Source of the DNA: Candidatus Cloacimonadota bacterium | GTDB lineage: Bacteria > Cloacimonadota > Cloacimonadia > JGIOTU-2 > B8-G9 | Length of the DNA: 60,244 bases | Assembly: GCA_003647765.1 (NCBI GenBank) | Contig: QMNM01000001.1 | Span: forward strand, 1-60,244 | Direction of reading: 5' to 3' | In this document: positions 1 through 60,244 of the stretch, one piece after another | Position numbering within the stretch: position 1 is the first letter of the stretch | Layout of the letters: each line of letters begins with the position of its first letter | The notes under the pieces: model-generated | Seen by the model: only the letters and a program-made list of their open reading frames with translations | The model's database searches: none | Told to the model about the DNA's origin: nothing | Position numbers and translations under genes: made by a program

Positions 1-123
1 AGAGAAAAGAGAAGAAGATATATTGAAGTGGCTGGATGATAACACTGAATCCTTACCTGAAGATTCTTTTCATCCTGAACTTATACCTGATTATACTCCG
101 ATTCCTTCCAAGCCTGTTTTGAA
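1..123. repeat. Terminal direct repeat copy A, identical to 60122-60244. Indicates a circular or circularly permuted genome of 60,121 bp.
   Basis: The window start agagaaaagagaagaagatatattgaagtgg...aagcctgttttgaa recurs exactly at the window end. Confidence 0.95.
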
Positions 124-3100
124 ACGGAAGCCCGAAAGGGTCTCTATGTTTTCTTTTGGTGTAGATTCAGATTTATCTCTGAAGAAGAAGATAGAATCAG
201 CGTATTCTATTTTTCAGAATGATTGGAGAGAGTTTTTACAGGCAAGGAAGGAGAGGCTTTCTCTGGCATGGAAGGCTGTATCAAAAGGCATAATTTCTCC
301 TGAAGAAGTAGATAAATTTGATTTTGTAGTTTCTGCTCTTGAGTGGGTAAAAGGAACTGATTTTAAGCATTTAATTAAGCGTGGGTTAGTAAATGAAAAG
401 GAAGCAAGGGTAAGGATTAAATTTTTTGAGACTTATGCCCAGAGAGTATGGAATGCTATTGGTGAAAGGCTTACAGGTTTAGATAATGTTTTAAAGAGCT
501 GGGCAAGGGGTGAGTTAAATTCAATAGATCCCAAAGATACTATTCATATAAGAGGATTGATTGAAGATGCTTTATCTGATTATCCTGCTTATACTCTCCA
601 GCAGTTAATAGAATTGCGTCGTGCTCATCGTATAGAGATTATTAGAAGGCTCTCAAAGAGTTATGCTTATACTTTACTGGACAGGTTTATTGAGAAAGGC
701 AGGAAGATAGATAAGAGTAGTTTAGATGCGATTTATAAGCAGTTAAGGAAATATGTAATCGGGTCTTATGTTTTAGCGATAGAAGGGAATGAGCGGAGTC
801 CTTTATTGAAAGAGTTAATGGGAGCTGGGTTATCAAAGCAACAAGCTATTCAACTTGTAAAGAATTCTTCTGCCAGAGCGACCCTGTTTTATCTTGATTA
901 TTTCTGGAGCAATTATGTTAAGGAATCAATGGGATTTTACAGGCTGGATACTCCTTTAGGCTGGGCTGGTGGTTTATTTAAATGGACCTGGGATTTAATC
1001 AAACTTGATTTCAATGCTCTACCTGCCAAATCAAAGAGATTACTGGTTGGCGAACTAGAAGATAACATTCTTCCTACAATAGATAAATTTATAGAGTTTG
1101 GTGATAAGTTATTAAGCATAAGGAAGACTCTGGAGCTTCCAGAGTATAAGCATATTTCAGCTATTAGGGCTTTAATGAAGAAGTTGCGGGATACTATTGA
1201 TGCTTATTTAAATAAGTCTTTGGATGTGAAGAAAGCCCAGAGAGAACTGGAGCATATCTGGAATGTTATTGTAGATAAATATGCAGTAGGGAATCACAGG
1301 GTTTTAGCCAAACTGGTTGCTAGAGAATTATTCCTTACTAATGCAAGGATTGGTTTACATAGGAAAGATGTTTCTGATTTTGAGAGATATAAATATCAAT
1401 CTGATGGTTTCCTGCGATTCTTGAAGCGGTATAATGATGCTTATAGTGCTTTATTGTATCTGGCAAAGAATGGAGAAGGTGCGACAAAGATTGTTGCAGA
1501 GCATTTATTGAAACTTCCTTATACCAGTATAGTTCTTCCACATGTTCCTATTAGGTTTGTAGAGAATTTATTTGGTGGAAAGACGACTGGTTTATATCGT
1601 CCCTATGAAGGTAACATGTTTGGAGAGATTATTGTTGATCCGAATGCTCTGCCCGATATTTTTGAAGCTACCATTTTTCATGAAATTTTACATGCATTGA
1701 CATTACATACACTTCATTTTTCCAAGAAAAGAGAAGAATATAGGGAAAGAATTAATAGTATTATAAACGATATTCGTCCATTGATTTCGGAGGAAGAATA
1801 CAAGTTAGGAAAATGGATAGTAGAAAATGAAGCAAGGCTTACCAAGCATGAATTGAAGGAAAAGATTGATAAGACTATTGCGAAAGATAGTCTTTTACAG
1901 GAGCATGTAGCTAGGTATGGAAAGCAGTCGTGGTTATCTTTTCTTGTTTCTCTACATGATCCTGATGAGTTTATTGTAACAGCTATAACTGAACCTGCGG
2001 GCAAGTTGTTCCTTATTGAGCATGATAAAAAATCCATCTGGAGAAAGATTCTTGATTTCATCAGGAACTTGTTAGGATTTCCAGTTGAAAAGAGAGAATT
2101 GTTTATCAGGACAGTTGACACTTTGATGGATATTGTTGCGGAATCTCATCCTATTTATGTTGCAGCTTTCAGGAAATACTTTAAGTTGCCTATAAATAAA
2201 ACTTTATATCAATTAGCTATGGCTTCTGCTGAAGAACTTTCTGATTTGGCTAACAGGATACAGAAAGAACATGAGTTAACAAGGCAAAGAATTAATCTTT
2301 CTGATTTTGAAGATAAGGTAAAAGATTTTGTTGAGCATATAAGGACATACAAAGCTCCTCCGCAAATGAAGGATATTAATATAATCAGGGAAAAATTTGG
2401 ATTACCTTTCTGGACAGCACTTCAAAATGAGTCTTTTAAGCCTTTATTTGATCATGTTACAAAGACAATGGAGAATAAGAATTTCACTTTACATGCTATT
2501 CTTCAGAAAGGAGAGACATATTTTAATGGGCTTGATGAAAAAAGAAGAAAGTATGTGGATTCTGCTATAAAGATAAGCGATGCTTTACAGGTCAGATTTA
2601 CGGAGGAGCATTTAAGGAATTTTCCAAGAGTTATTTCTAACATGAAGATTGCGTTCAATTTGATGTATCAGCTTTTGAAGCAGGAAGAAAGGTCTGGGTT
2701 AAATAGAAAGCAGAGAGCAGAGAGAAGGCAGGTTGTCCTGCAACGATTAAATGAAGCCACAAAGTTAGATTTACCAAAAGAATACTCTCAACCGCAGTAT
2801 GTTATCAGGTTTAAGCATTTCTTTGATTATGCAAGATTGCCAATAGACAAGTTATCCGATGAAGAAATAAAAGCATATAATAATTATGCAGAAGTAACTC
2901 AAGAGACTTTGAATCATCTAGGCGATACTTTCTTATCTCTGGTTTGTAAGCTGGTAATAAAGAACTATTTACAGAAGTTAAAGATAGATGTTCCTTCTAC
3001 TGTTCAGACTCAATGGATAAATACTTTAGTGGAGTTTGGTAAGGATATAGAGCAGGCTAGAGAGCGGGTTGCCCGAATGAATCCAGAAGCTAGAGAGATT

Positions 3101-5302
3101 TGGGAATCATTACTCAATGATTTGGAGGCTCATTCTCTCTATCAGAAATACAAAGAGATTCAGGATTTGATTAAAGATACCAAATTCTATTCTCCTCGTA
3201 TGAGAGATCCTGATGCTTCTGATATGATTGTAGTTGTAGAGAGAGAAAAATTCTTGGAAGAATACAGGAAGGCTTATAGAGAGACAGGTAATAGAGCGAA
3301 GGCTTTACAGCAAGCGTATTATGCGACTGCGAATGCCAATGGTGTCTATTTAAGAGAGCATGTTAGAAGAATAGATCCTGATTATAAGAGAAAGTTAGAG
3401 CATATTCAGTCTGTATTTAAAGATAGCAGGTTTCTTGTGCAGAGATTACCTAATTACAAGTTAGCGGAATCTGTCTGGGGCAATGTAAGTGAAGGAGATC
3501 TAGGAGCATTTCTCTCTGCTGTTGCAGAAAAAGTAAGGAAAGAAAATGTTGATTCTGAAACTTTAATGGGATTCTTGGAGAAGGTTGCAGATACAATTCA
3601 GACTGAATTGTTAGCTAAAAGTAGAGCAAAACAGAGATTTATTAAGAGAAATCCTTATCTGATTTTAGGATATACTCTGGATAATGTAAGGGAAGAATTA
3701 TTCAATTATGTAAACAATGCTTCTAATTATGCTGCCCGAATGGTAGCATTGGTAGAAGGATTACCTTTATTGAATCAAATAGATCCTTATCAGCAGAGAA
3801 GGTTGAGAGATTATGCTCATAAATGGTTCTTTGATCAATTGAAGCCACAGAGCCAGTTTGATCGTATTGTAGGAAAAGTAAAATCCTTGATGTTTATCTG
3901 GTATTTGGGCGGAGTGATTCGTCCTGCTTTAATTCAATTTACACAAATGTTTATTTCTACCATTCCAATGACAAGTATTGTTTATGATATTCCAATAACC
4001 AGAAGTATCTCTGTTTTTATGAAGGCTTATAGAGATGTATTGGATCACAGGAATTTAGATGAAAATAAGTATTTGACTGCGGACGAAAAAGAGTTCCTGC
4101 GGATTACATATACAAGTGGAATAACCACAGCTCAATTTATCAATCAGATGAGAGATGAAGTTGCGGGCAGAGGAAAAGTTCTCTCTACTCTGGCTACTTG
4201 GTTGACTACTCCTTTTGCATATATGGAAGAAAATAACAGGCTGGCAACAGCTTTAGGAATTTACAGGATTTTGAAAGAGAAAGGAATAGTCAGGCATGCA
4301 AAGGATAAGAAAGCTATGGAAGAAGCTACAACAATTGTTAATATGTCTCATTATTTAATGGGTAAACTCAATCTTCCTATTATAGCAACAGGTGGAGATG
4401 TGGCTTCTGGTTTAATGCGTCTAGCTCTTACTTTCCGTTCATTTACATTAAACTTATTAGAATCTTATATTTACATGCTCCGACATCTGCCTAAAGGACA
4501 GAGAGTTTGGGGTCTCAATAAAGAAGGATTGAGATTTGTTGGATATAGTTTTGCTGCCTTTACCTTATTCGGTGGAATTCTAGCAATACCTTTCCTTGAT
4601 GACTGGCTACAATTATTAGAAAGATTGACAGGAATTCCTATAAGAAAAAGGTTAGTTACTGTATTTGGAAATCCAGATTCTCCGCTATCTGTTGCTTTAG
4701 AAAGAGGATTACCTGCTGCCCTGATAGGTATGGATTTAAGCGGTTCATTGAAGATAGAATTCCCAAGACGACCAGAAGATATTTTGAATACTATTTTTGG
4801 AGTATATGGTGGACTTTCAAAGAGTTTTGCGGACGCAATGGTTGCTTTAGATGGTTATGATAGTTTGAACATCTTGTATAGGATTATGCCACAAGTGTTT
4901 GCCAATCCGATCAGGGCTTATGAAGCATATAAAGGAATAAAGAATCAATACAATAAAGTAATTCTGGACGAAGAAGGGCGACCATTGAGACTTACAGAAG
5001 GAGAAGCTGTCCTACTTGCACTTGGAATTAGACCAACAAGGTTGGGCAGAACTTATCTCTATAAGAGCACAAGTAGGAACATAGAAAAATACTTTGATAG
5101 TAAGCGGAAGGCTATATACAATGCTTATAGAAGTGCAAAGACTGCATCAGAGAGATGGAAAGTTTACAGGATGATTTATGAATATAACATGGAAGCTGCC
5201 AAATATGTATCTATTCCAAAGATTACTTTACAATCCCTGAAGGCAGCTTCCAAACCTGTTGAGAGCAAGCTAACACAAGAATTGAAACTTAAGGGTTATT
5301 AA
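1..5302 (+). CDS. Giant virion/ejection, polyvalent-like protein, C-terminal part. It is the continuation of 57084..60244 across the circular junction.
   Basis: The frame is open from base 2. Positions 23 and 60144 are equivalent and in frame with the ATG at 57084. An HExxH motif (HEILH) lies at 1679-1693. Several hydrophobic TM-like segments occur near the C-terminus (SLMFIWYLGGVIRPALIQF, FVGYSFAAFTLFGGILAIPFL). It is the last gene of the structural operon. Confidence 0.8.
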   Translation, partial: EKREEDILKWLDDNTESLPEDSFHPELIPDYTPIPSKPVLKRKPERVSMFSFGVDSDLSLKKKIESAYSIFQNDWREFLQARKERLSLAWKAVSKGIISPEEVDKFDFVVSALEWVKGTDFKHLIKRGLVNEKEARVRIKFFETYAQRVWNAIGERLTGLDNVLKSWARGELNSIDPKDTIHIRGLIEDALSDYPAYTLQQLIELRRAHRIEIIRRLSKSYAYTLLDRFIEKGRKIDKSSLDAIYKQLRKYVIGSYVLAIEGNERSPLLKELMGAGLSKQQAIQLVKNSSARATLFYLDYFWSNYVKESMGFYRLDTPLGWAGGLFKWTWDLIKLDFNALPAKSKRLLVGELEDNILPTIDKFIEFGDKLLSIRKTLELPEYKHISAIRALMKKLRDTIDAYLNKSLDVKKAQRELEHIWNVIVDKYAVGNHRVLAKLVARELFLTNARIGLHRKDVSDFERYKYQSDGFLRFLKRYNDAYSALLYLAKNGEGATKIVAEHLLKLPYTSIVLPHVPIRFVENLFGGKTTGLYRPYEGNMFGEIIVDPNALPDIFEATIFHEILHALTLHTLHFSKKREEYRERINSIINDIRPLISEEEYKLGKWIVENEARLTKHELKEKIDKTIAKDSLLQEHVARYGKQSWLSFLVSLHDPDEFIVTAITEPAGKLFLIEHDKKSIWRKILDFIRNLLGFPVEKRELFIRTVDTLMDIVAESHPIYVAAFRKYFKLPINKTLYQLAMASAEELSDLANRIQKEHELTRQRINLSDFEDKVKDFVEHIRTYKAPPQMKDINIIREKFGLPFWTALQNESFKPLFDHVTKTMENKNFTLHAILQKGETYFNGLDEKRRKYVDSAIKISDALQVRFTEEHLRNFPRVISNMKIAFNLMYQLLKQEERSGLNRKQRAERRQVVLQRLNEATKLDLPKEYSQPQYVIRFKHFFDYARLPIDKLSDEEIKAYNNYAEVTQETLNHLGDTFLSLVCKLVIKNYLQKLKIDVPSTVQTQWINTLVEFGKDIEQARERVARMNPEAREIWESLLNDLEAHSLYQKYKEIQDLIKDTKFYSPRMRDPDASDMIVVVEREKFLEEYRKAYRETGNRAKALQQAYYATANANGVYLREHVRRIDPDYKRKLEHIQSVFKDSRFLVQRLPNYKLAESVWGNVSEGDLGAFLSAVAEKVRKENVDSETLMGFLEKVADTIQTELLAKSRAKQRFIKRNPYLILGYTLDNVREELFNYVNNASNYAARMVALVEGLPLLNQIDPYQQRRLRDYAHKWFFDQLKPQSQFDRIVGKVKSLMFIWYLGGVIRPALIQFTQMFISTIPMTSIVYDIPITRSISVFMKAYRDVLDHRNLDENKYLTADEKEFLRITYTSGITTAQFINQMRDEVAGRGKVLSTLATWLTTPFAYMEENNRLATALGIYRILKEKGIVRHAKDKKAMEEATTIVNMSHYLMGKLNLPIIATGGDVASGLMRLALTFRSFTLNLLESYIYMLRHLPKGQRVWGLNKEGLRFVGYSFAAFTLFGGILAIPFLDDWLQLLERLTGIPIRKRLVTVFGNPDSPLSVALERGLPAALIGMDLSGSLKIEFPRRPEDILNTIFGVYGGLSKSFADAMVALDGYDSLNILYRIMPQVFANPIRAYEAYKGIKNQYNKVILDEEGRPLRLTEGEAVLLALGIRPTRLGRTYLYKSTSRNIEKYFDSKRKAIYNAYRSAKTASERWKVYRMIYEYNMEAAKYVSIPKITLQSLKAASKPVESKLTQELKLKGY

Positions 5303-7673
5303 AACTCAAATCCTTTCCTATTTTTCCTTCAGTTTCAATGGGGTATCCAACATTGATGCCCCAATGCTTTTTTATGTATTCTTTCGTTCTATTTTCAAAA
5401 CAATCTTTCAATATCTCTTGTGCTTTTTCGGCAACATCTTCTCTTGCTCTATAATAGTAGGCATCGTGGATAAAAAGGTTAGTCAGGATTACTTTATCTT
5501 TCAGGTCGGGGCGGGATTTTATTTCCTTCCAGAACAACATTATTCCAAGACATGCTAGTTCGCTACTGAAATTCTGAACAGGAGTATTGATTGCCTGCCT
5601 TTCCGCTTTACTTCTCAACCTGAAATCATCAGAATCAATATGCGGTAAATGTCTTTTCCTTCCTAAAACACATCTTATATACTTATGCTTTCTTGCAAAC
5701 TTAACCATTCGTTCATGATATAAAGGAAGTTTCCAGTATCCATTGGGTTTAGAGAAGAAAAGTTCTCTATATCGCTCTGCTTCTTCTAAAGTGAAGACGA
5801 CATCATAGTTTTTAAAAGCATAATCAACCAGAGAATTTGCCTGCATTCCGTATATTAATCCAAAATTTATCGGCTTTGAGAGCTGTCTCAAGTCTTTAGT
5901 AATTTCTTCTAAAGGCTTTCCTGAAATAAGGGAGGCTGTTCTTTTATGTAAATCTATCCCTTCATCTAAAGATTTCAGGATATTTTCATCTTGAGCCAGC
6001 CAGCCTATTATTCTCATTTCACTTTGACTTAAATCCTGACTGCATATAACCCAGCCATCTTCGGCTACAATATTTCCCAAAACCTTTTCAGAGAATTCTC
6101 CGTGTGCTGGAAATTGTTGCATAGGAGGGTCTAATATTACAGTTCTCCCTGTTACTGTTCCTGTTAGGAATATCTTTGGGTAAATATATCCATCTGGATA
6201 CAGATTTTTTCTTATTGCTTTGATGTAAGTGTTCAGAATTTTGCTTATCTGTTTATATCTTAATAGCTTTGCGACCCATTCGTTATCTTTGAATCGTTTT
6301 AGATGATATTTATCGGTAGAAGGTTGTTTTGTTTTTTCTGTAAATTCAACAGGTTTCAATCCCAGCCCTTTCTTTGTAAACATAAACTTTGCAATGATGT
6401 CGGGAGTTAATGAGTCTGCATCTTTCTTTATTGATTTAGGGATAGCATCCATTAATTCCTTTTCCAATTTTTTCATCTCTGTATAGAGAGAATCTTCGTT
6501 TTCATCTAGTTTATTCAGGTCTATTTTCCATCCGTTCGCAGATACATCGCTGAAAACGTTTTCAACGGGAAGGCAGTAATATTTGTAATATCTGGTTAAT
6601 TTTTTATCTTCCATAATCTTTTTCTTCAGGACATTGAAGACTTCAATAGTAACTTTAGCATCAAGACTGACATAATTCAGGAGCTTGCTTTCTTCTAATT
6701 TTTCCATCTCTGTCCTATTTCTATTCACTACATCTTTTATATTGTAGTAGGAAGTGAAGACATTTGCCAGATGCTCTAGGGAATAGGAAGCTAGGTTTTC
6801 ATCTACAACATGAGCCATTGTCATTACATCAAATATTTGTCCTTTAACTTCGCAACCAAGATTCTTTTTACATACAAGTTCATCAAAAGGACGATTATGC
6901 ACGACTTTCTTTATATTCTCATCTTCCAGTATTTTCTTTATACTTTCTTTGAGTTTATTGTCTTTGGTAAGGGATGCGTAGGGCAACCCTTCTTTTCCTG
7001 CCAGACCTATACATAAGACTTTTCCTTTCATGTGTGCGACCCGCAGGTTCTCTGTTTCAAGGTCAAAAGCTATTATTTTTCCTTTGGGCAAATTGATTGT
7101 TGTATATTCATGTTTAAAATCTTCCTTCTGTTTATAGAGAGCGACAGCATGTTTGATGTCGGCATAAAACAATTTCTCTACTTCATTCATCTTTTCTAAT
7201 GGAATATACGGATACCCACGCTTGCATTGTCTTAAAACATAGGCAGGATGAAATGTTGGAATAACAACAGCATCTCCGAAGGGAAATTGTAGTCCTCTGA
7301 AACTGGAAATTCTTTTCTTATTGAACATCTGATAGAGAGCCAGTTCTCCTAATAAGACAATCACTTTGGGTTTGAGGATTCCCAGAGCTTTTACAACATG
7401 TTCTTTACAGCACTTTGATGCTTTTTCTAAATCGGTTTTTTTATCCTGCCCTAATTTCTGGCACATTGTAGCATTCAAGATAGATATATCTACTCTAGAC
7501 ATCCCAAAGAGTGAAAACGTTTTCATTAAGAGTCGCCCACTTTCTCCTACAAAAGGACGACCTTCTCTTACTTCTTCCCACCCAGGACCTTCTCCTATAA
7601 CCACAAATTCAGGATTATTTTTCTCATATTTAACTTTCTTTCTTCCTTTAAAAGGACAATCTTTACAGCTCAT
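5289..7673 (-). CDS. polA: Family-A DNA polymerase fused to an N-terminal family-4 uracil-DNA-glycosylase-like domain and a 3'-5' exonuclease domain.
   Basis: UDG4 motifs GEGPG..PFVGESGRLL and HPAYVLR, plus N-terminal Cys residues. Exo I motif FDLETENL. Pol motif A DLSQSEMRI and motif B RQLSKPINFGLIYGM. Motif C-like IHDA. Confidence 0.9.
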   Translation of the reverse strand: MSCKDCPFKGRKKVKYEKNNPEFVVIGEGPGWEEVREGRPFVGESGRLLMKTFSLFGMSRVDISILNATMCQKLGQDKKTDLEKASKCCKEHVVKALGILKPKVIVLLGELALYQMFNKKRISSFRGLQFPFGDAVVIPTFHPAYVLRQCKRGYPYIPLEKMNEVEKLFYADIKHAVALYKQKEDFKHEYTTINLPKGKIIAFDLETENLRVAHMKGKVLCIGLAGKEGLPYASLTKDNKLKESIKKILEDENIKKVVHNRPFDELVCKKNLGCEVKGQIFDVMTMAHVVDENLASYSLEHLANVFTSYYNIKDVVNRNRTEMEKLEESKLLNYVSLDAKVTIEVFNVLKKKIMEDKKLTRYYKYYCLPVENVFSDVSANGWKIDLNKLDENEDSLYTEMKKLEKELMDAIPKSIKKDADSLTPDIIAKFMFTKKGLGLKPVEFTEKTKQPSTDKYHLKRFKDNEWVAKLLRYKQISKILNTYIKAIRKNLYPDGYIYPKIFLTGTVTGRTVILDPPMQQFPAHGEFSEKVLGNIVAEDGWVICSQDLSQSEMRIIGWLAQDENILKSLDEGIDLHKRTASLISGKPLEEITKDLRQLSKPINFGLIYGMQANSLVDYAFKNYDVVFTLEEAERYRELFFSKPNGYWKLPLYHERMVKFARKHKYIRCVLGRKRHLPHIDSDDFRLRSKAERQAINTPVQNFSSELACLGIMLFWKEIKSRPDLKDKVILTNLFIHDAYYYRAREDVAEKAQEILKDCFENRTKEYIKKHWGINVGYPIETEGKIGKDLSFNNP
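6551..6564. repeat. TGAAAACGTTTTCA palindrome, perfect copy, inside polA.
   Basis: Read as E-N-V-F. Confidence 0.95.
7512..7525. repeat. Palindrome, perfect copy, inside the polA UDG domain.
   Basis: Read as K-T-F-S. Confidence 0.95.
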
Positions 7674-33083: not shown

Positions 33084-35966
33084 ATGGAGAGTTTCTCTAT
33101 AAACGAAGTTCCTTATAACTTCAATGATGTTCCTACCATTAAGAAGTTTTATCTTTCAAACAAGAAAATCAGGGCTATTGTAGGACCGTATGGTTGTTTT
33201 CCAGAATATTGTGAGTATTTGAGTTTTTCTGATGGAGAATATCGCTGGAAGAAGATCAAGGATTATCAAGAAGGGGAAAAGATTGCGGTTTATGATTTTG
33301 AGACAAAGGAGCTTCGGTTTGAGAAGCCTTTGGCTTATGTAAAGCTCCCTATGAATGATCTCTGGATTCATATTCGTGGCAGTAGATTTTTTGAAGCGAT
33401 AGTTTCTCCTGAACATGTCTTTCCCTATATTGTGTCTCATTCTGGGAAATATGGAGTGAAGTCCATTACTGAATTGATTAAGTGGGGGATTACGAATGCA
33501 AGGGTGGTTAATACTTTTCGCATTTGTGGGGAGACTTTTGGTTTAGATGAGTGGTTGGTCAGGTTTATAGCGATGCTTTCTGCTGATGGGCATAAGTGTT
33601 CTGATACCAGATGGCAGGTTTCTTTGAGGAGACGGAGGAAGATTGAGAGGTTGGAGTTTTTGTGCAGGAAGGTAGGAGTTCCTTATTCTCGTAAAGTTTA
33701 TGATTCCCGTCCTACTGAAAATGTTTTCATTTTAGATTTATCTTCTCATCCGCAACTTGCGGGGTTGACCAAGAAGTTTCCGAATTATTTTTACAATTTA
33801 TCTTCTGATTTACTTGATGTTTTAGTGGATGAGATTTTGTATTGGGACGGCTCATTTTACAATGGGAATGATAGGAGATATTTTACGACCATTAAGGAGA
33901 ATGCTGAATTTATCCAGTATGCTTCTCATGCAACGGGCAGGCGTGCTTCCGTTCTTAAAGTTTCGTATCCGAAAGATAATTGGAAGGATTGTTATATTGT
34001 TCATATTTCTGGGAAGGGGGTAAAGAAGACCTGTTTTATTGACAAGGATGCTCCTAAAGATAGGTCAATAAGGTATATTTCTCCGAAGGAAGGTGAATTT
34101 AAGTATTGTTTTACCACTTCAACAGGGTTTTTTCTTGTTAGGTTTAATGGAGCTGTTTATATTTCTGGGAATTCGGGCAAGTCATCTGGTTGTGTTATTA
34201 CTATGCTTCGTCATACTTGTGAGCAGATGCCAGATCCGCATGGGATAAGGAGAACTAGATGGGTTGTTGTTAGAAATTGTTATTCTGATGATACAGAGAT
34301 TCTGACAGAGAAGCGGGGCTGGGTATTGTTTAAAGATTTACTTCCTGATGATAAGGTGGCTCAATATAATCCTGCGACTGATAGATTGGAATTTGTAAAG
34401 CCGACTTATTATTATCGCTCCTATTATAGTGGAGATATGATTTGGGTTCATTCCAGTAGAAAGGAGCTTGATCTTCTTGTTACTCCAGATCATAGGCTTT
34501 ATGTTGCTGATTATAAAGATGGAAAGTGTGGGTCTTTTGATTTTAAAATGGCAAAGTTTTGTTATGGGAAGAAAGTTGCTTTTATTGGTTCTGATGGAGA
34601 GTTGATAGTTGCAGATGAATCTGATTGGGATATGGTAGCTTATAGTGGAATGGTTTATTGTGTAGAAGTTCCTACTCATATCATTTTGGTTTGCAGGAAT
34701 GGAAAACCAGTTCTTTGTTCCCAGACTTACAGACAGCTGAAGGACACAACCAAAAAGACAATAGACTACTGGTTGCGGTTTGCAGAATGGAGAGAATCAG
34801 AGTTTAAGTATATTCTCAAGTTCAGGTTGCAGGATAATACGATAGTGGAGTCTGAATGGCTTTTGAGAGCGTTGGACAGACCAGAGCATATTGCGAATTT
34901 ACTTTCTTTAGAGATAACGGGTGCGTGGTTGAATGAAGCAAGGGAGATTCCGAAGGAGATTTTTGATGCGATAGAAGGAAGATTGCGTTATCCTCCTACA
35001 ATAAGAGACAGAGATGGGAAAGTTTTATATGGTCCTACTTGGTTAGGGATTTTGTTAGACACGAACCCTCCTGATGAAGATCATTGGTTTTACAAGTATT
35101 TTGAAGAAAATAGACCAGAGAAAGCGGAGATTTTTCATCAGCCATCTGGTTTATCTCCTGAAGCGGAGAATATCAGGAATCTTCCTCCGAATTATTATCA
35201 GGATCTTTGTGTTGGCAAGGATCAGGATTGGATAGATGTTTATGTGCATGGGAAATATGGTTCTGTAAGGTCGGGCAAGCCTGTATTTTCTCTCTACAAT
35301 GATGAGATTCATTGTGCGAAAGAGCCGTTAGCTCCATTGATGGGATTTCCGTTGATAATTGGAATGGATTTTGGTTTAACTCCTGCTGCTGTGATTTTAC
35401 AGAAGCCTCCACGCAGGTTATTTGTTCTTGATGAAGTTGTAGCTGAAGAACCGATTGATGTAATTGAGTTTATTCGTTATATGCTTCTTCCTTTTATGGA
35501 GGAGAAGGAATTTTATCGGGGCAAGAATTTCATAATTGTGGGAGATCCAGCAGGTAAGGCAAGGTCGCAGGTTGATGGAAGGAGTGTATTTGAAGCGATA
35601 AATCAGTTAGGGTTGCGTGCTTATCCTGCCTATACGAACTCTTTACAAATCAGGTTAAATGCGGTAAATCAATATTTAACAAGATTGGATACTTTTGCTG
35701 GGGAGATGAAGCCAGCGTTTTTATTATCTCCTACTTGCAGGATGCTGAGGCAAGCCTTGAAAGGGAAGTATAGGATGAAAAGGGTAGCGACTGGGACAGA
35801 TATGTATTCTGATGTTCCTGTGAAGGACAAGTGGTCGCATGTTGCGGATGCGTTGCAATATGGAGCTTTAGGGTATAGGAAGCCGACTTTTAATGAAGAA
35901 TTTGATGAGTTTTCTAACATAGAAGGGCGGGGAGGACCAACGCATTTAGGAACAGGTATTTATTAA
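33084..35966 (+). CDS. terL: Terminase large subunit interrupted by two inteins. The spliced product would be about 485 aa.
   Basis: The split Walker A is IVGPYG / SGKSSG. VVVRN / TYRQLKDTT is also split. Walker B-like WLNEARE. Nuclease motifs IIGMDFGL, GDPAG and HVADALQY. Confidence 0.9.
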   Translation: MESFSINEVPYNFNDVPTIKKFYLSNKKIRAIVGPYGCFPEYCEYLSFSDGEYRWKKIKDYQEGEKIAVYDFETKELRFEKPLAYVKLPMNDLWIHIRGSRFFEAIVSPEHVFPYIVSHSGKYGVKSITELIKWGITNARVVNTFRICGETFGLDEWLVRFIAMLSADGHKCSDTRWQVSLRRRRKIERLEFLCRKVGVPYSRKVYDSRPTENVFILDLSSHPQLAGLTKKFPNYFYNLSSDLLDVLVDEILYWDGSFYNGNDRRYFTTIKENAEFIQYASHATGRRASVLKVSYPKDNWKDCYIVHISGKGVKKTCFIDKDAPKDRSIRYISPKEGEFKYCFTTSTGFFLVRFNGAVYISGNSGKSSGCVITMLRHTCEQMPDPHGIRRTRWVVVRNCYSDDTEILTEKRGWVLFKDLLPDDKVAQYNPATDRLEFVKPTYYYRSYYSGDMIWVHSSRKELDLLVTPDHRLYVADYKDGKCGSFDFKMAKFCYGKKVAFIGSDGELIVADESDWDMVAYSGMVYCVEVPTHIILVCRNGKPVLCSQTYRQLKDTTKKTIDYWLRFAEWRESEFKYILKFRLQDNTIVESEWLLRALDRPEHIANLLSLEITGAWLNEAREIPKEIFDAIEGRLRYPPTIRDRDGKVLYGPTWLGILLDTNPPDEDHWFYKYFEENRPEKAEIFHQPSGLSPEAENIRNLPPNYYQDLCVGKDQDWIDVYVHGKYGSVRSGKPVFSLYNDEIHCAKEPLAPLMGFPLIIGMDFGLTPAAVILQKPPRRLFVLDEVVAEEPIDVIEFIRYMLLPFMEEKEFYRGKNFIIVGDPAGKARSQVDGRSVFEAINQLGLRAYPAYTNSLQIRLNAVNQYLTRLDTFAGEMKPAFLLSPTCRMLRQALKGKYRMKRVATGTDMYSDVPVKDKWSHVADALQYGALGYRKPTFNEEFDEFSNIEGRGGPTHLGTGIY
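33195..34172 (+). mobile_element. Intein 1 (326 aa) with a LAGLIDADG homing-endonuclease domain, inserted in the terL P-loop.
   Basis: It starts with Cys38 (CFPEY...). Block B is VSPEH. The LAGLIDADG-like segments are FIAMLSADGH and VDEILYWDGSF. It ends ...VYISGN, followed by Ser. Confidence 0.85.
33716..33729. repeat. Palindrome variant (TG centre), inside the intein 1 endonuclease domain.
   Basis: Read as E-N-V-F. Confidence 0.9.
34278..34724 (+). mobile_element. Intein 2, a mini-intein of 149 aa, in terL.
   Basis: It starts CYSDDTEILTEKRGWVLFKDL. Block B is LVTPDHRLYV. Block F/G is VYCVEVPTHIILVCRNGKPVLCSQ, followed by Thr. Confidence 0.8.
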
Positions 35967-43426: not shown

Positions 43427-43447
43427 CTCTAACAGGGAGGTGTGGTC

Positions 43448-44371
43448 ATGCCAATACCAAGACTTCCGAATTATCCTGATTATAATGCAACCAAGAATAT
43501 TCCTGTAATATTTGCGGGGAAAACTCTTGAGAAATTTTATGCTGCTTCTACTGTGGCTAATATAGCCACAACTGATTATGTGGGGGAGATTAAGAATCAA
43601 GGAGACACTGTTTGGATCAGGACTGTTCCATCTATTACTATCAAGCCATATAAGAAAGGGCAGAGGTTAGAGCTGGAATATCCAGAATCTACATATGTAG
43701 AGTTTACTGTTAATCGTGCTAAATATTACAATTTTGCTCTTGATGATATTGATATTAAGCAGTTTGATTTGAATATGATGGATAAATATGCTCAAGATGC
43801 CAGTCAGCAGTTAAAGATTGTGTATGATAGGGAAGTATTTGGGACTATTTATGTGGATGTAGATGAGAATAATCGTGGTCCTAATGCAGGAAAGCAGACT
43901 CATGCGTTTAATTTAGGAGAGACTGGTTCTCCGCTTGAAGTAACGAAAAATAATATAATTGATCTTATAGTAGATATGGGAACTGTTCTTGATGAGCAGG
44001 ATAGGCCAAGAACTGATAGGTATATTGTTCTTCCTCCGAAGATTGCTGGTCTTATCAAGAAATCTGAATTGAAAGATGCATCTCTTACTGGAGATAGGCA
44101 GTCAGTATTGAGAAGTGGTCTTATAGGCAGGATAGATGATTTTGATATTTATATTTCTAATTTACTTCCTATTGTAGAAGATGGTGGGAGCAAGTGCACT
44201 TACATTTACTTTGGGCATAAATCTGCGTTAGTATTTGTAATGCAGTTAGTAAAGGAAGAAACCTATCGTCCACCTGATACTTTTGCGGAGGCAATGAAGG
44301 GGTTAGTTGTTTATGATTTTAAGGTATTACAGCCTGCAAGTTTAGGTGTTGCTTATGTTAAATTAGTATAA
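43448..44371 (+). CDS. Major capsid protein.
   Basis: Its position follows the scaffold gene and it is about 307 aa. The pattern GDTVWIRT...YYNFALDDIDIKQ...RYIVLPP...IGRIDDFDIYISN is typical of HK97-fold coat proteins. The ATG at 43448 has better SD spacing than the alternative. Confidence 0.75.
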   Translation: MPIPRLPNYPDYNATKNIPVIFAGKTLEKFYAASTVANIATTDYVGEIKNQGDTVWIRTVPSITIKPYKKGQRLELEYPESTYVEFTVNRAKYYNFALDDIDIKQFDLNMMDKYAQDASQQLKIVYDREVFGTIYVDVDENNRGPNAGKQTHAFNLGETGSPLEVTKNNIIDLIVDMGTVLDEQDRPRTDRYIVLPPKIAGLIKKSELKDASLTGDRQSVLRSGLIGRIDDFDIYISNLLPIVEDGGSKCTYIYFGHKSALVFVMQLVKEETYRPPDTFAEAMKGLVVYDFKVLQPASLGVAYVKLV

Positions 44372-50028: not shown

Positions 50029-52311
50029 ATGGGATTTAAGGACAAAAAAGAGTTTAGTTGGAAAGTTTTTGAGAGAGGAGCTTATTGGACTATATATACT
50101 CATGTTGGCGTGTTTGGATGGAAGAATTTTTATTTTATTTTGAGGCAGTATGGAAATGTTCTTTTCTTGAGAAAATATAAATTTCCCGATGTATTACTAT
50201 GGGAAAGAAAGGTATATAATAAACCAGACTGGAAAGCTCTACCATTAGGAGCTGGGGTAGTAACACCATCTAGGATCTATTTTGCTAGATGGATAGATGA
50301 AGATGTAGGATGGATAGAACATAAAGATGATGTAGGGGATTATCCTACTTTCCATCCTATTTTATCGGCAGGTGGTAGAAAAGAAAATTTACAAGGACTT
50401 GCGTCTGTAAAAAAATGGTCAGCTACATTATACAGAGATGCTTATTTGTTTCATTGTGATGTAGGAGCACATCGTATTTTAGTTACTGATCTTGATGGGG
50501 GGTATATAGGAGAATTTGGAAGTTATGGTAGTTTACATGGGCAATTTAAAAAACCGCATCAATGTGCTTTATATTGGCATCCTGTATTTGGAGATATACT
50601 TTTTGTAGCGGATTATGGTAATGGGAGAATAACGGTATGGCAGATAGAGTCTATAAATCCTTTTAAAGTAAATCCAGTGGCAGGTGGGATTGAAGGTTTA
50701 GTTGATGATGATCGTCCGTGTGGGGTAGCGGTTTGGAGGAATCAACTATATATAAGATGTTATAAACATAAAGTAAAAGAATTTAAAATAAATTCGGATT
50801 TAACATTGGAGGCGACTGGAAATGAAGATTCTTTTGATTCTGATTGGGTTAATGGATTATGTATGTATTTAGCAAAAGATTCTAATTCTCTTGTTACTCT
50901 TGTTCAGAGTTATGCTGGTGAATTTCAGGCTTCAAGAGTAAATTTAGTTACTTATACAATAACTGCCATTGAAAATACAATGGAAGGTTCGGTAGGGTTT
51001 CGTTGCGATGCTTTGAGTTTTGGGATTGAAAATAGTTTTGGGTTTAGTATTCGTGCTGGACATCAAGGAGTATGGAAAGGATTTGATTTAGAATTTGAAG
51101 GGTATGCACCACCTCCTCCTGTTGTAGATGTTGATTTTAAATTTTCCTGTTCTGCGAAGCATGATATTCGTGCAATGATTCGCTCCTTTGGTTTCAAAGG
51201 ACGTGTAGAACAAAGGCAGATAATAGAATTTATATTCTTCTCTTTTTTAGGACATTCTAATTATATGTTTGGAAATGTAGATTTTTCCATAGACATGGAT
51301 ATAATCGTTACTGAATTTCTCACTGGTGAAAACATTTTCAATTTTAAGATGATAGCGAATGCTCCGCTGGTTTATACCTGCCATCTTGACACAAAGCCTA
51401 TTGAACTTGAAGGAGAGCTTATTAATTCTTCTTTTGTTTCCTGTTCTCTTGAATTACCTTCATTAGAGATTGTTATCAGAGAGAGTCCTGCAGGGAGCGT
51501 TGATTTACCTGCGATAGATATTTTTGGAGAGATAGAAGTTCCTGTTGTTGGTAATGTGGGTTTGAATTTAGCAAGGTTGCAATCATCAGGGCAGATAGTA
51601 AATCCGTTCTTTGTTGGTGGGCAGGCAATTGTGCCTGCAATGAAAGTTTCTGGTCTTATTTATCGTCCTGATTTAATCAGTGGTAATTTAATTTTCAGAG
51701 CTTTACAGACAAATGGAATTGGGTATGCGTCGCTGGATAGATTAGATATTCATTGTATTTTGAATGAGTTACAAATGAATAGTGAAATTCTTGTGAATCC
51801 TGTTTTGGTAGGAGAGTGTGAACTGGCTCTATTTGAAGTAAGGGCTGTTGAAAGGAAGGAGATTTCTTCTACTGAAGAAATTTATCAGAATGATGAATTG
51901 AATGTTGTTTCTGCTGAATATCCTGAAGTTGAAGGTAGGGAATTGTTAGGTGTTGCTGTAAATCTTTTGAACAAGGGAATTACGAAATTAGCGAATACTT
52001 CAAATATGGTTATAGATTTAGGTTATATAGACCTTCACAAGTCTGTAATAAATCAGTATTTGGAAGTTTTTATTAGTGGAAAATCTGACCAGCCAGCTAT
52101 TGGAGAGTTAATTATAGGAGATTATTCTTATTCAATTGATGAGTGGGTAACGGAAGGGGAGTGGAGGATTCTTGTTGGTAAAGGTTTGACAAGACGCACG
52201 GCTTCCAATCCTGATAAAAGATATATTCCTATTAAGTTAAAATTAGTTTCAGGTTTTGAGTTAAAGAGTGTGGTTGTGAAGGCAATACCAGTTGCTAGGA
52301 GAGGAAGGTAA
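50029..52311 (+). CDS. NHL-repeat (beta-propeller) tail protein.
   Basis: GSYGSLHGQFKKPHQCALYWHPVFGDILFVADYGNGRITVWQI. Confidence 0.55.
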   Translation: MGFKDKKEFSWKVFERGAYWTIYTHVGVFGWKNFYFILRQYGNVLFLRKYKFPDVLLWERKVYNKPDWKALPLGAGVVTPSRIYFARWIDEDVGWIEHKDDVGDYPTFHPILSAGGRKENLQGLASVKKWSATLYRDAYLFHCDVGAHRILVTDLDGGYIGEFGSYGSLHGQFKKPHQCALYWHPVFGDILFVADYGNGRITVWQIESINPFKVNPVAGGIEGLVDDDRPCGVAVWRNQLYIRCYKHKVKEFKINSDLTLEATGNEDSFDSDWVNGLCMYLAKDSNSLVTLVQSYAGEFQASRVNLVTYTITAIENTMEGSVGFRCDALSFGIENSFGFSIRAGHQGVWKGFDLEFEGYAPPPPVVDVDFKFSCSAKHDIRAMIRSFGFKGRVEQRQIIEFIFFSFLGHSNYMFGNVDFSIDMDIIVTEFLTGENIFNFKMIANAPLVYTCHLDTKPIELEGELINSSFVSCSLELPSLEIVIRESPAGSVDLPAIDIFGEIEVPVVGNVGLNLARLQSSGQIVNPFFVGGQAIVPAMKVSGLIYRPDLISGNLIFRALQTNGIGYASLDRLDIHCILNELQMNSEILVNPVLVGECELALFEVRAVERKEISSTEEIYQNDELNVVSAEYPEVEGRELLGVAVNLLNKGITKLANTSNMVIDLGYIDLHKSVINQYLEVFISGKSDQPAIGELIIGDYSYSIDEWVTEGEWRILVGKGLTRRTASNPDKRYIPIKLKLVSGFELKSVVVKAIPVARRGR
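51327..51340. repeat. Palindrome variant (CA centre), inside the NHL protein CDS.
   Basis: Read as E-N-I-F. Confidence 0.9.
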
Positions 52312-57083: not shown

Positions 57084-60000
57084 ATGGCAGAAAAGAAACA
57101 GGTTTTACCAACAATAGATGATCAATATGTAGAATTTCTTACTCGCAGGATGTTAGGGCTTCCTTTAACAGGACAGCTCAATTTACCTAAAGAGAAAGAT
57201 TTATTAAAGGTTCAGAGTCAAGGGCAGACAGCTTTACCTGTTTCAGTTCCGACGATGCAAGTTCCGCAAGCTCCTTCTGTTCCTATTCAGACACAGCAAG
57301 AAGAAGGCTGGCTTCCTGTTCTTGGTAAAGCGGTAGCCAGAGGATTAGCTACTCCTGTAATAGGTGCTACTGGAGCAATATCTGCTCTGGGAGAGCGGTT
57401 AGGTTTTGATACAAGTAAAATTCAGAAGTGGGCGAATGAGTTGTCTAACTTATTAGCTCCCAAAGTGGGTAAGAATAAAGCGAAGGCTTATGCTTATGGG
57501 ATTATAGATTCAACGATAAATAGTATTACTCAATTTCTCCTTTCAAGGTTTACCAGAGTTCCGCTTCTTCCTATGTTTGGTATTACTTCTGGTGGTGAAA
57601 AGTTCTTACAGGCAAGAGCGGAAGGGTATCCTTATGAGAAGGCAATAAAGACAGCTGTTCCTACTGGTTTATCTGAAGCTCTGACAGAGATGATTCCCTT
57701 CCACAGTCTTACAAAGACAATGAAGAAATCTATCATTAAGGGAGTTGTTGAGTTATTTGGTGGTGAGTTAGTGGGAGAGAATTTAAATACTATTGTTGAA
57801 AACATATCTGATCAGCTAGCTTTAGGTAAGCATAAGACTTGGAGTGAATTTTTACAGGATTTAGTGGACACAACTATTACCACATTAGGGCAGACTGCTC
57901 TTACTGCTGGATTGGGAGCGGGGGTTCACAGATTAGCACGAAGGGTAGAAAAGAAAGCAAAGGCAATAGAGCAACCTGCTCCTGAAGTTCCTCCACAACC
58001 ACAACCAGCTCCAGCAACATCTCCTTATGAATTACTAACTGCTTTACCACAGAAGCCAGAGCAGGTATCTGCGGGAGTAGCTTCTATATATGATAGGATT
58101 GCGGATAGGTTAGAAGGAAAACAGAAAGAAAGGGCAAGGAAACATGCTTCTGTATTGAGAGATATAAGTCAGAAGAAAGTTCCTGCTGTTGAAGATATAA
58201 AGGAAGTTAGGGAAGATATAAGTAAATCTGAAAGGTTGCCTAAATCTGTAAAGAATATTTTAGTAAAGCATTTAGATTCTCTGATTAAGCAGGCTGAAGA
58301 AAAGAAAAAGAAAGAGCTTATTCCTAAAGAAACCAAGCCAGAAGTTAAAGAAGAAAAGCCGAAACCAAAGGAAGAAAAGCCAAAGGAAGAAGTCAAAACA
58401 GAAGAAAAAATTGAAAACGTTTTCACTCAACCAGAAGAAGAAAAGTTGACTGATGAAGAAATAAAGATTTTGAAGGATAGAGGATTTACTGACAATCAGA
58501 TTAAGAAACTCCTTCCTGAAGAAGGGAGGAGGTTAATAAAAGAAAATCTTGCTCCTGAACAGGTAAGCGTTCTCCCTAATGGAAAGGTAAAAGTTATAGA
58601 GAAGAAGAAGGAAGTTTCTGTTCCTGAAAAAGAAGAAGCGAAGGAAAAAGAACCCTGGCAATTGACGAAGAAAGAATGGGAAAGTTTATTGGAGAAAGAT
58701 TTAACTCCAGAAGAAGCAAACAAATTCTTTCCTAAAAAGCGAATTGATAAATACAGAATTTATCACAAGAAGTATGGGGAGAAAGTTGTTCCTACATATA
58801 AGCGTATAGATAAAAAGACGAAGGGCACTTTTGAGATAAACAAGTATATTTTACAATCTGAACCTGATTTGATTGATGTAATTAGGAGATGGCATGTAGA
58901 GCAGGCTTTAAAGGAAGGTAAACCCGTTCCTGAAGAAGTTTTGAAGGAATTTCCTGATTTAGTAAAAGAAGAAAAGAAACCAGAAAAAACCAAACCTTTA
59001 TTTGAAGGAGTAGATAATTATCGTCTTACTTCTAAAGGACATGAGTTAAGGGTTGTAAGGGCAGGAGAAGCACTTTCTCATCCTGATAGGAAAGGGACTT
59101 GGTTTGTTGTTGAAAAATATAAAGGGCAGATTCCTCCGTATGCAACTTCTCCTATAACAAAAGGTGGAGTTGCTGGTGTTGGTGGAAAAGAGATATGGAG
59201 GACTTCTGTTACTTTGCGTAATCCTTATTTGTTTGAGATTCCTGAAGATATAAAGAGTGAAGGAGAGATTCCTTTAGCTCTCTATAAGGAAGTTACAGGG
59301 AAAGAGCCTCCAAAGAGAGGATTAAAAGGAAAGAATGCAGAAAAAAGGTTTGCGAAATTAGAAAGTGAGATAGCGGATACTTTAAGAAAGAAAGGTTATG
59401 ATGGAGTAATTCTTTATCAGAGAGTTGGGGAGAATACTTATCCCGACCAAGTATTTGTTTTTAGGGATACAGAGGCTCATAAAGAGTTGGAGAAAAGTTT
59501 AGAGAAGAAATCAGAAGCGAAAGAGAAAGAGACCAAGAAAGAACTTATCCCTGCTGAAAAGAAGGAACAGAAGAAGGAAACCAAGCAAGAGCTTATTCCT
59601 ACTGAAGAAAAGAAGGAAAAGAAAGAACAGAAGAAGAAGGAACTTATCCCTTCTGCTGAAGAAGTAAAGAAAGCGAAACCTGTTTCTAAAATTTCTTTTG
59701 AATATGGAAAGACCAAGAGTCAGATGAAAGTAAGGCATGAGGTTTATGGAGAGTTGCCTTTCTTTATAAAGAGAGGGTTTAAAGGCTGGAAATTATATGG
59801 AGAGAGAGCTGTAAAGTTAAAGAATGGCAGGGTTGTTATTGTTCGTCAATTAAGGGCACAGGGATTAAAATCTGTTGAAGATGTTAGGAAGAAGATTCAG
59901 TCTTTTATTGATGAAGGTGAGCCTGTAATTATAGCTGATAAGGATGTATTGAAAGAGCGTCCGCTGGAGGATATAAGCGGGAAGGTAATCAGACCTGAAG

Positions 60001-60244
60001 ATATAGATTTGAAGGAATTAAAGAAGGTTGCTGTTTTTAAGGAGATAGGGAAGAAGGCAAAGCAGGAATCTGCGGAGATTAGGGAAAGGGTAGATGAAGT
60101 TGAGGAGATTCTTTCTGAAGTAGAGAAAAGAGAAGAAGATATATTGAAGTGGCTGGATGATAACACTGAATCCTTACCTGAAGATTCTTTTCATCCTGAA
60201 CTTATACCTGATTATACTCCGATTCCTTCCAAGCCTGTTTTGAA
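57084..60244 (+). CDS. Giant virion/ejection, polyvalent-like protein, N-terminal part. It runs off the window end and continues at base 1.
   Basis: The ATG at 57084 follows TAGGAG. I translated the whole stretch by hand and found no stop. It is absent from the ORF track because it has no stop inside the window. Confidence 0.8.
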   Translation, partial: MAEKKQVLPTIDDQYVEFLTRRMLGLPLTGQLNLPKEKDLLKVQSQGQTALPVSVPTMQVPQAPSVPIQTQQEEGWLPVLGKAVARGLATPVIGATGAISALGERLGFDTSKIQKWANELSNLLAPKVGKNKAKAYAYGIIDSTINSITQFLLSRFTRVPLLPMFGITSGGEKFLQARAEGYPYEKAIKTAVPTGLSEALTEMIPFHSLTKTMKKSIIKGVVELFGGELVGENLNTIVENISDQLALGKHKTWSEFLQDLVDTTITTLGQTALTAGLGAGVHRLARRVEKKAKAIEQPAPEVPPQPQPAPATSPYELLTALPQKPEQVSAGVASIYDRIADRLEGKQKERARKHASVLRDISQKKVPAVEDIKEVREDISKSERLPKSVKNILVKHLDSLIKQAEEKKKKELIPKETKPEVKEEKPKPKEEKPKEEVKTEEKIENVFTQPEEEKLTDEEIKILKDRGFTDNQIKKLLPEEGRRLIKENLAPEQVSVLPNGKVKVIEKKKEVSVPEKEEAKEKEPWQLTKKEWESLLEKDLTPEEANKFFPKKRIDKYRIYHKKYGEKVVPTYKRIDKKTKGTFEINKYILQSEPDLIDVIRRWHVEQALKEGKPVPEEVLKEFPDLVKEEKKPEKTKPLFEGVDNYRLTSKGHELRVVRAGEALSHPDRKGTWFVVEKYKGQIPPYATSPITKGGVAGVGGKEIWRTSVTLRNPYLFEIPEDIKSEGEIPLALYKEVTGKEPPKRGLKGKNAEKRFAKLESEIADTLRKKGYDGVILYQRVGENTYPDQVFVFRDTEAHKELEKSLEKKSEAKEKETKKELIPAEKKEQKKETKQELIPTEEKKEKKEQKKKELIPSAEEVKKAKPVSKISFEYGKTKSQMKVRHEVYGELPFFIKRGFKGWKLYGERAVKLKNGRVVIVRQLRAQGLKSVEDVRKKIQSFIDEGEPVIIADKDVLKERPLEDISGKVIRPEDIDLKELKKVAVFKEIGKKAKQESAEIRERVDEVEEILSEVEKREEDILKWLDDNTESLPEDSFHPELIPDYTPIPSKPVL
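58412..58425. repeat. Palindrome, perfect copy, inside the giant ORF.
   Basis: Read as E-N-V-F. Confidence 0.95.
60122..60244. repeat. Terminal direct repeat copy B, identical to 1-123.
   Basis: Same 123 bases as the window start, and in the same reading frame as the giant ORF. Confidence 0.95.

Follow-up and report, generated by a model that had tools for sequence, protein, structure and literature searches.

The window analysed here is the whole of contig QMNM01000001.1 (60,244 nucleotides), deposited within a Candidatus Cloacimonadota assembly (GCA_003647765.1), and its first lines hold the 3' part of a giant gene that probably encodes an internal virion (ejection) protein of the PLxRFG/IVP-D class of giant "polyvalent" phage proteins. 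The two ends of the contig are identical, with bases 1-123 repeated exactly as 60122-60244 in a self-comparison, and the contig is therefore a circular phage genome of 60,121 bp with a 123-bp assembly overlap. An earlier interpretation of this DNA, made without database searches (hereafter the sequence-only reading), had proposed one protein of 2,779 amino acids (aa) running across the contig ends; joining the ends gives a single continuous open frame of 8,340 nt, that is 2,779 aa and a TAA stop, which confirms that the giant protein is real. Its further proposal of a polyvalent or injected multidomain virion protein is now supported by a curated tail domain, a match to F116 p60, the context of a zincin motif and an ART-like module. 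The gene, the domain memberships of its product, the conservation of its residues and its synteny are direct observations, and among the PLxRFG/IVP-D giant virion proteins this one is divergent and poor in cargo.

57084..60121, + strand: giant gene, 5' part (codons 1-1012 and the first two bases of codon 1013)
1..5302, + strand: giant gene, 3' part (third base of codon 1013 through the stop codon TAA, 5300-5302)
60122..60244, no strand: assembly overlap, an exact repeat of 1-123 that adds no sequence

The ATG at 57084 is preceded, 6 nt upstream, by an AGGAG that shares bases with the stop of the preceding gene, and the 3' end of the giant gene overlaps the 3' end of the convergent polA. It is the last + strand gene of the virion block, following the major head protein (MCP), tail genes and large genes of no known family. 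This arrangement recurs in three related contigs of ~61 kb (L003, L006 and L007). The place at the end of the virion operon agrees with the sequence-only reading, which had compared it with those of T7 gp16 and the N4 virion RNA polymerase. The orthologues in these contigs measure 2,962, 2,590 and 2,556 aa and share 42-46% identity, and a more distant full-length relative of 2,775 aa (P0005, ~20% identity) is encoded on a 93-kb contig.

The C-terminal PLxRFG/tail-700 domain

2984..5257, + strand: PLxRFG/tail-700/IVP-D-like helical domain, aa ~2008-2765 (NF032893, PHROG, tblastn, AlphaFold2 and Foldseek)
3191..3211, + strand: SPRMRDP, aa 2077-2083, aligned with PLSRFG of the name-giving relatives
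4535..4591, + strand: FVGYSFAAFTLFGGILAIP, aa 2525-2543, the only clearly transmembrane-like segment (Kyte-Doolittle 1.67)

Evidence for the affinity of the protein comes from its C-terminus. The NCBIfam model NF032893 ("tail-700", PLxRFG domain-containing protein) matches aa ~2221-2758 over profile positions 106-657 of 681, with 117.8 bits (E 5e-34) against a cut-off of 100. In a tblastn search of 50,697 phage records, stretches of ~450-550 aa were matched at the extreme C-terminus of giant proteins in Pavtok, PEp14, POI1126, Parlo, PBC5, Skulduggery, Itty13, 8P and others. A profile search of 1.84 billion cluster representatives recovered 2,562 clusters at E <= 1e-3; among the matches listed, those outside the lineage of the present phage begin only at aa ~2000, the exceptions being three clusters of that lineage itself. 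The domain occupies the extreme C-terminus in all 150 listed relatives as well as in Pavtok gp27 and POI1126 gp30, and the largest protein that carries it among the matched clusters reaches 6,710 aa. The matches stop ~100 residues short of the target C-termini because the query was used without its last 90 aa. Pavtok gp27 (5,007 aa) and POI1126 gp30 (4,841 aa) are each encoded by the last virion-module gene before the lysis genes, and combine the tail with LPD39, LPD37, LPD3, InPase, SLT/cell-wall hydrolase, Eco57I-type methylase and SNF2 helicase domains. Both qualify as true polyvalent proteins as Iyer et al. (PMC5512222) use the term, and other relatives with the tail domain carry ART-PolyVal.

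The profile phrog_10089, labelled "DarB-like antirestriction", matches aa ~2302-2764 with nothing beyond its C-terminal 470 positions (4144-4613 of 4647). The methylase and helicase that would justify such a label, namely a DarB-type N6-adenine methyltransferase and SF2 helicase modules, were not found in the giant protein with Pfam or NCBIfam, and a Pfam scan of all 2,779 aa returned noise alone. As the match is confined to the tail and these enzymes are not found, the "DarB-like" name is not transferable and was rejected; "internal virion (ejection) protein with PLxRFG domain" would be the better annotation. The motif in that name is itself loosely kept. FYSPRMRDP (aa 2075-2083) aligns with YFPLSRFG of two relatives, and Y2076, P2078, R2079 and R2081 are invariant in the lineage; the literal PL.RFG is present in just 2 of 165 relatives, and PLxRFG is thus a name rather than a requirement.

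An AlphaFold2 (AF2) model of aa 1500-2699, built on a 34-row alignment, has a mean predicted local distance difference test (pLDDT) score of 81.5 and a predicted template-modelling (pTM) score of 0.67, and shows the tail domain as almost entirely helical, with pLDDT mostly 80-95. Compared with BFVD by Foldseek, it matches 54 models at E <= 1e-3 (best 3e-21). Most of those listed represent the final chunks of giant phage proteins that carry the names methylase, helicase, LPD-containing or PolyVal ART, aligned with template-modelling scores of 0.4-0.5 across ~1,300 columns, and a structural protein of Cellulophaga phi14:2 is also among them (E 7e-9). The sequence-only reading had described several long hydrophobic segments in the C-terminal third. 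One 19-aa window, aa 2525-2543, reaches a Kyte-Doolittle value of at least 1.6 and is clearly transmembrane-like; five or six others score 1.0-1.4, so that "several" was an overstatement.

The zincin-like metallopeptidase domain

1475..2062, + strand: zincin-like metallopeptidase domain, aa ~1505-1700 (AF2 topology, residue conservation and a weak match to N4 gp50)
1679..1693, + strand: HEILH, aa 1573-1577; H1573, E1574 and H1577 are the predicted zinc ligands and general base
1967..1969, + strand: E1669 in DPDEF (aa 1666-1670), predicted third zinc ligand, 96 residues downstream of HExxH

Ahead of the tail lies the single HExxH signature with a downstream DPDEF that had been pointed out from the sequence. 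Its surroundings are zincin-like and conserved in the orthologues, and the motif is not a chance one. H1573, E1574, H1577 and E1669 are retained in all full-length relatives (P0002-P0005) and in the distant giants P0072 and P0111, with E1669 invariant in all five full-length relatives. Between HExxH and the distal glutamate, relatives at 18-46% identity have anything from 50 to 96 residues, and retention of the four residues despite this variable insert argues for selection on a metal site. In the AF2 model, helices at 1507-1524 are followed by strands at 1530-32, 1542-44 and 1555-58, the HExxH helix (1564-1586), a helical insert and a helix at 1667-1676 that bears E1669. The helices have pLDDT values of 80-94, and the predicted order of elements matches the core that Iyer et al. 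described for the metallopeptidases (MPTases) of polyvalent proteins (PMC5512222). As neither a curated zincin model nor a solved zincin was matched in Pfam, a PDB sequence search or Foldseek against PDB, the domain is best described as zincin-like by motif and predicted topology, outside the named peptidase families.

N4 gp50 contains HELVHAST followed, after 82 aa, by NEFMAWG, and its HExxH helix region matches the zincin region weakly (hidden Markov model (HMM) E 0.0056; hhalign probability 42%, E 2.6e-4). An HExxH with a downstream E[FM] is thus common to the present protein, P0002-5, P0072, P0111 and N4 gp50. Since 17 other giants match our profile from the zincin or the connector region onward, and the top BFVD matches align along the entire 1,200-aa model, the zincin, connector and tail look like a conserved super-module.

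The protein has several features in common with the phage-type polyvalent proteins that Iyer et al. described (PMC5512222). It is a giant of many domains whose gene lies among late genes, and it has, as in their MPTase hub, an HExxH helix and a glutamate on a later helix separated by a variable insert, together with an ART-PolyVal-like module and a small nucleic-acid-binding-like module. In contrast to those proteins few activities are recognisable here, the Pfam MPTase-PolyVal and ART-PolyVal models stay below threshold, and a histidine conserved at the end of strand 2 in some phage MPTases is missing. The domains present are the zincin, a probably inactive ART-like module and an HhH-like module; a second confidently active enzyme was not found.

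The N-terminal region and the lineage-specific middle

57291..57953, + strand: N-terminal helical, Gly-rich domain, aa ~70-290 (local HMM, AF2 and Foldseek)
58446..58598, + strand: HhH/TALE-like helix-turn-helix and beta-hairpin module of ~50 aa, aa 455-505 (AF2 pLDDT 83-94)
59046..59465, + strand: compact domain, divergent ART-PolyVal-like, aa 655-794 (local HMM and hhalign)
59685..59918, + strand: small beta-rich domain, aa ~868-945 (AF2 strands, pLDDT 50-73)
125..1432, + strand: lineage-specific conserved region, aa 1055-1490, found in P0002-P0005 only

The N-terminal ~1,050 aa open with a second end domain (aa ~70-290) that is also found near the N-terminus of PLxRFG giants, including P0030 (E 1e-55), P0016, P0018, P0121 and P0149. 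AF2 predicts its helices at low confidence, with weak Foldseek matches to the first chunks of the same giants; the model of aa 1-1053 as a whole has a mean pLDDT of 50.6, is unusable for the compact and N-terminal domains, and gave one BFVD match below 1e-3. Most of the remainder is linker rich in K and E (pLDDT 30-50), interrupted by small islands, and neither PHROGs, searched with the N-terminal 1,053 aa, nor tblastn of the N-terminal part against the phage records gave a match.

The first of these islands is an HhH-like module (LKxxGFSDxQIxKL…VSVxxxGxIKV) that occurs in 2-4 copies in the orthologues, as seen in an alignment of seven copies. Its first 20 residues match the HhH repeats of Topoisomerase V (E 3.5e-4), and it matches the TALE-like BurrH with E 7e-38, a value summed over the many repeats of that protein; by these similarities the module may bind DNA.

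The compact domain had reminded the sequence-only reading of enzymatic modules in polyvalent proteins, an impression upheld by a weak yet specific similarity to ART-PolyVal in which the catalytic positions are altered. It has no Pfam or PHROG match, Pfam ART-PolyVal (PF18760) included (none at E <= 1, short of the gathering threshold), and among proteins of 1,528-4,863 aa a word-based search with aa 645-965 found no homologue. A local ART-PolyVal HMM, built from 42 copies in the collected giants and seeded on a PF18760-positive region, covers just the C-terminal two-thirds of the domain (…LRNP…, …KKGYDGVIL…), with 19.1 bits (E 1.2e-7), and hhalign assigns a probability of 87% in local and 46% in global mode. 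The global alignment sets the consensus YHGT against VRAG and dEyivF against DQVFVF, with an uncertain alignment in the N-terminal third. The His...Tyr...Glu triad of ART-type enzymes is probably not kept, Arg standing at the His position and Gln at the Glu position, and the module may accordingly be inactive or changed in function. The corresponding module of P0002 resembles it by eye (GGK..LRNP..GYD[GA][VI]; BLAST E 0.43), and the ART profile gives no match to the modules of P0002 and P0045. The small beta-rich domain is shared only with the orthologue P0002 (phmmer E 4e-4), and the middle modules in general vary between orthologues.

A repeated ELIP motif in the linkers

58314..58325, + strand: ELIP copy 1, aa 411-414, in a disordered linker rich in K/E
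59541..59651, + strand: ELIP copies 2-4, at aa 820, 836 and 853, in a K/E-rich linker
77..88, + strand: ELIP copy 5 (PELIPD), aa 1039-1042 (PELIP at aa 1038-1042)

Four K(K/Q)ELIP repeats had been noticed in K/E-rich linkers, and all were recovered there (starting at aa 409, 818, 834 and 851; nt about 58308-58325 and 59535-59651), together with a fifth copy, PELIP. This last copy is positionally conserved in the orthologues, just ahead of the conserved C-terminal ~1,700 aa. Composition alone predicts 0.09 copies of ELIP in the protein, and none of 20,000 shuffles gave five. The [K/Q/P]ELIP sites are confined to disordered linkers at domain borders and differ in their codons; three orthologues keep the motif, its codons having changed synonymously. 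There are 3-4 copies in P0003 and P0004 and three of [S/P]LIP in P0002, while 160 other giants hold 6 copies of ELIP per 434,451 aa.

No ELIP occurs in the other real open reading frames of this genome, the MCP and portal included, and a prohead-protease site was therefore rejected as an explanation. The motif may serve the zincin in cis as a place of cleavage or docking. A bolder version, which we consider rather unlikely, would make the [K/Q/P]ELIP sites recognition or cleavage sites of the zincin and the giant a self-processing polyprotein, cut within the capsid or after ejection into about five pieces. These may comprise the N-terminal end domain with a helical segment, the HhH-like module, the ART-like module, the small beta domain and a delivery body of 1,700 aa. 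If it held, ELIP would be the first defined cleavage code for a polyvalent-protein MPTase.

Relationship to the IVP-D family, T7 gp16 and N4 gp50

Hardies et al. (2016) linked the F116-group giants to the T7 IVP-D (internal virion protein D) family by HMM-HMM matching (E 8e-19), in an extended family that comprises F116 p60, H66 gp60, PBC5 p23, BcepMigl gp69, phiRIO-1 gp37, epsilon15 gp17, the C-terminal domain of N4 gp50 and T7 gp16, and remarked that H66 gp60 is recorded as a structural protein (PMC4819975). Our tail profile, built from 164 sequences, scores 559 bits against the giant protein and matches F116 p60 aa 959-1626 with E 2e-92, and PBC5 p23 was reached directly by tblastn. The same profile matches T7 gp16 aa 1093-1175 weakly (11.2 bits, E 3e-6 for a single comparison), in an alignment that covers an xTF(K/R)xF motif and the transmembrane-like helix. 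Foldseek in addition matches the 1,315-aa "internal core protein" of RSB3, a phage of the T7 order (E 4.7e-5). JC1 gp69, a giant of the Bcep22 type, was found by mass spectrometry in CsCl-purified virions (PMC9144972); as Bcep22 gp75 escapes NF032893 and our own profiles, this virion evidence counts only by way of the published family. A literature search on virion proteomics of phage 8P returned nothing useful.

The closest counterparts are the PLxRFG giants of ~60-kb podophages, such as F116 p60/H66 gp60, Erwinia Pavtok gp27 and PEp14, Ochrobactrum POI1126 gp30, Sinorhizobium PBC5 p23 and the 495-kDa protein of Klebsiella Lastavirus. They share the C-terminal domain of ~700-770 aa, a gene placed last in the virion module, one or more zincin modules upstream of the tail, in many members ART-PolyVal-type modules and, in some, the N-terminal end domain. 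Unlike in those giants, no DarB-type methylase, SNF2 helicase, lytic transglycosylase, peptidoglycan hydrolase or Pfam LPD domain was found here, ~1,000 aa (aa 1055-2000) are conserved only in a vent/sediment lineage of 4-5 members, long K/E linkers with ELIP are present, and SPRMRDP replaces the literal PLxRFG.

T7 gp16 is likewise the last and largest helical protein of its internal-protein block, and the likeness extends to the weak profile match and the Foldseek match to the T7-order core protein. The present protein is, however, twice as long, lacks the N-terminal lytic transglycosylase and adds a zincin and further modules at the N-terminus; compared directly, the two are only marginally similar, and Foldseek against PDB returned no T7 gp16 structure. 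N4 gp50, also the product of the last gene of a virion operon, shares with it HExxHA(S/L)T, then (N/D)EF after ~82-96 aa and a long helical C-terminus. Against N4 gp50, the HExxH helix region alone matches, and the RNA polymerase domain is missing. The sequence-only reading had already doubted a virion RNA polymerase, rightly so: no RNA polymerase family was matched in Pfam, PHROGs or NCBIfam, no DxDxD is present and tblastn found no match to Schitoviridae, and this candidate was rejected. Comparisons of either end of the protein with single N4 gp50 sequences and a six-member N4-family alignment, by HMM and hhalign, were not significant. The IVP-D family, to which published work assigns both N4 gp50 and Bcep22 gp75, is too divergent for a single model.

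Functional inferences and alternatives

From its relatives and the literature we infer that the protein is packaged, ejected, acts on the membrane and has a part in proteolysis. It would be made late, together with the structural proteins, travel inside the capsid and leave it at infection through the portal and short tail, as T7 gp16 and N4 gp50 do. The conserved C-terminal ~1,280 aa, i.e. the zincin, the helical connector and the tail-700 domain with its one transmembrane-like helix and several amphipathic helices, would form a delivery scaffold that probably refolds at or in the cytoplasmic membrane and helps to build or extend a DNA conduit. The N-terminal ~1,050 aa, with the second conserved end domain and then small modules set in disordered K/E-rich linkers, would bring the HhH-like, degenerate ART-like and small beta modules into the cell. 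It is most likely that the zincin cuts its own polypeptide or a partner, a role put forward by Iyer et al. for the MPTases of polyvalent proteins (PMC5512222), with the ELIP linker motifs as candidate sites. The membrane-inserting ejection protein of the sequence-only reading retains one clear transmembrane-like helix and loses its several transmembrane segments.

A number of results weigh against this assignment. Foldseek of the aa 1500-2699 model against PDB gave nothing significant (best E 0.25), and a five-sequence profile of the whole protein family, searched against PDB sequences, reached no solved relative. The protein has only one clearly transmembrane-like segment, the beta-sheet of the zincin region is modelled at a pLDDT of only 55-60, and the Pfam MPTase-PolyVal and ART-PolyVal models do not match. 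Its direct link to T7 gp16 is weak, the tie between the F116 group and T7 being taken from PMC4819975; NF032893 and the tail profile do not detect the C-terminus of N4 gp50, and NF032893 and our own profiles give no significant match to Bcep22 gp75. Lastly, the phage and its close relatives are known from metagenomes alone.

One alternative is that the protein is a component of the ejectosome or core and nothing more, a stretched gp16 analogue in which HExxH is a structural or inactive relic, the N-terminal modules have no effector role and no processing takes place. The poverty of its cargo, the want of a Pfam enzyme domain, the Arg and Gln in the ART-like module and the constant position of the zincin next to the tail, as if part of the scaffold, would all fit, and N4 gp50 is packaged unprocessed in spite of its zincin domain (PMC5512222). 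However, relatives at 18-46% identity strictly retain H, E, H and the distal E around an insert of 50-96 aa, and the middle modules differ between orthologues as cargo would, leaving this purely structural role unlikely in our estimate. Still less probable is a late, unpackaged cytoplasmic protein for anti-defence or replication that happens to be encoded at the end of the operon. The gene does converge on polA and the replication module, and PHROGs calls its tail family antirestriction, but no methylase or helicase was found in it, it is co-oriented with the virion genes and begins 9 nt from the upstream stop, and the tail domain belongs to virion-module genes of cultured phages and to proteins whose structural role is annotated or shown. 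A tape-measure or fibre-like protein could also be suggested by the large size, the helical content and the late position in the structural block. No profile or fold of that kind was matched, however, and the sole tape-measure hit of Foldseek has E 2.5 and involves a low-confidence model; sheath and tail-tube genes were not found, the portal is of the SU10 (podovirus) type and the C-terminus is the IVP-D/PLxRFG domain. Tape-measure and fibre readings were rejected on these grounds, and we give them next to no credence.

As a probable internal virion protein of the PLxRFG/IVP-D class, the giant bears on how such proteins, which make up 14-25% of many ~60-kb podophage genomes, are organised. The vent-phage version has shed the usual methylase, helicase and lysozyme cargo and kept both end domains and the tail-adjacent zincin; it therefore marks out a minimal "delivery scaffold", and points to the zincin as a part of this scaffold and not of the cargo. 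The ELIP linker motif offers a testable candidate for the autoprocessing long proposed for polyvalent proteins.

Genome context

33084-35966, + strand: large terminase, 960 aa
35974-37980, + strand: SU10-type portal
43442-44371, + strand: major head protein (MCP)
several positions, + strand block: structural/fibre-like proteins
50029-52311, + strand: NHL-repeat protein, 760 aa
52311-54278, + strand: protein of 655 aa, no known family
54278-56119, + strand: protein of 613 aa, no known family
56121-57074, + strand: protein of 317 aa, no known family

The proteins of 655, 613 and 317 aa encoded upstream of the giant gene matched no family, and sit where internal proteins of the T7 gp14/gp15 type would be. 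Two of them had been taken for paralogous internal-protein candidates. Their position in the internal-protein slot agrees with this; as paralogues they are barely alike, the 655- and 613-aa proteins having in common a single stretch of 109 aa (28% identity, E 0.003). The genome shows no recognisable sheath, tail-tube or tape-measure gene. The N-terminal half of the large terminase has PHROG matches labelled PhoH-like and ribonucleotide reductase. The NHL repeats (beta-propeller) of the 760-aa protein match the NHL domains of TRIM71 and Thin (E 1.6e-14), making it a candidate receptor-binding or tail-fibre protein.

Near-identical DNA is present in hydrothermal vent metagenome runs (39-46% of sampled 31-mers), with smaller shares in marine sediment and marine metagenomes. 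The strand opposite to the virion block carries the replication genes. Among them polA (5289-7673, - strand) encodes a family A DNA polymerase with an N-terminal domain of the uracil-DNA-glycosylase superfamily followed by 3'-5' exonuclease and polymerase domains, and the same fusion is encoded in the three related contigs.

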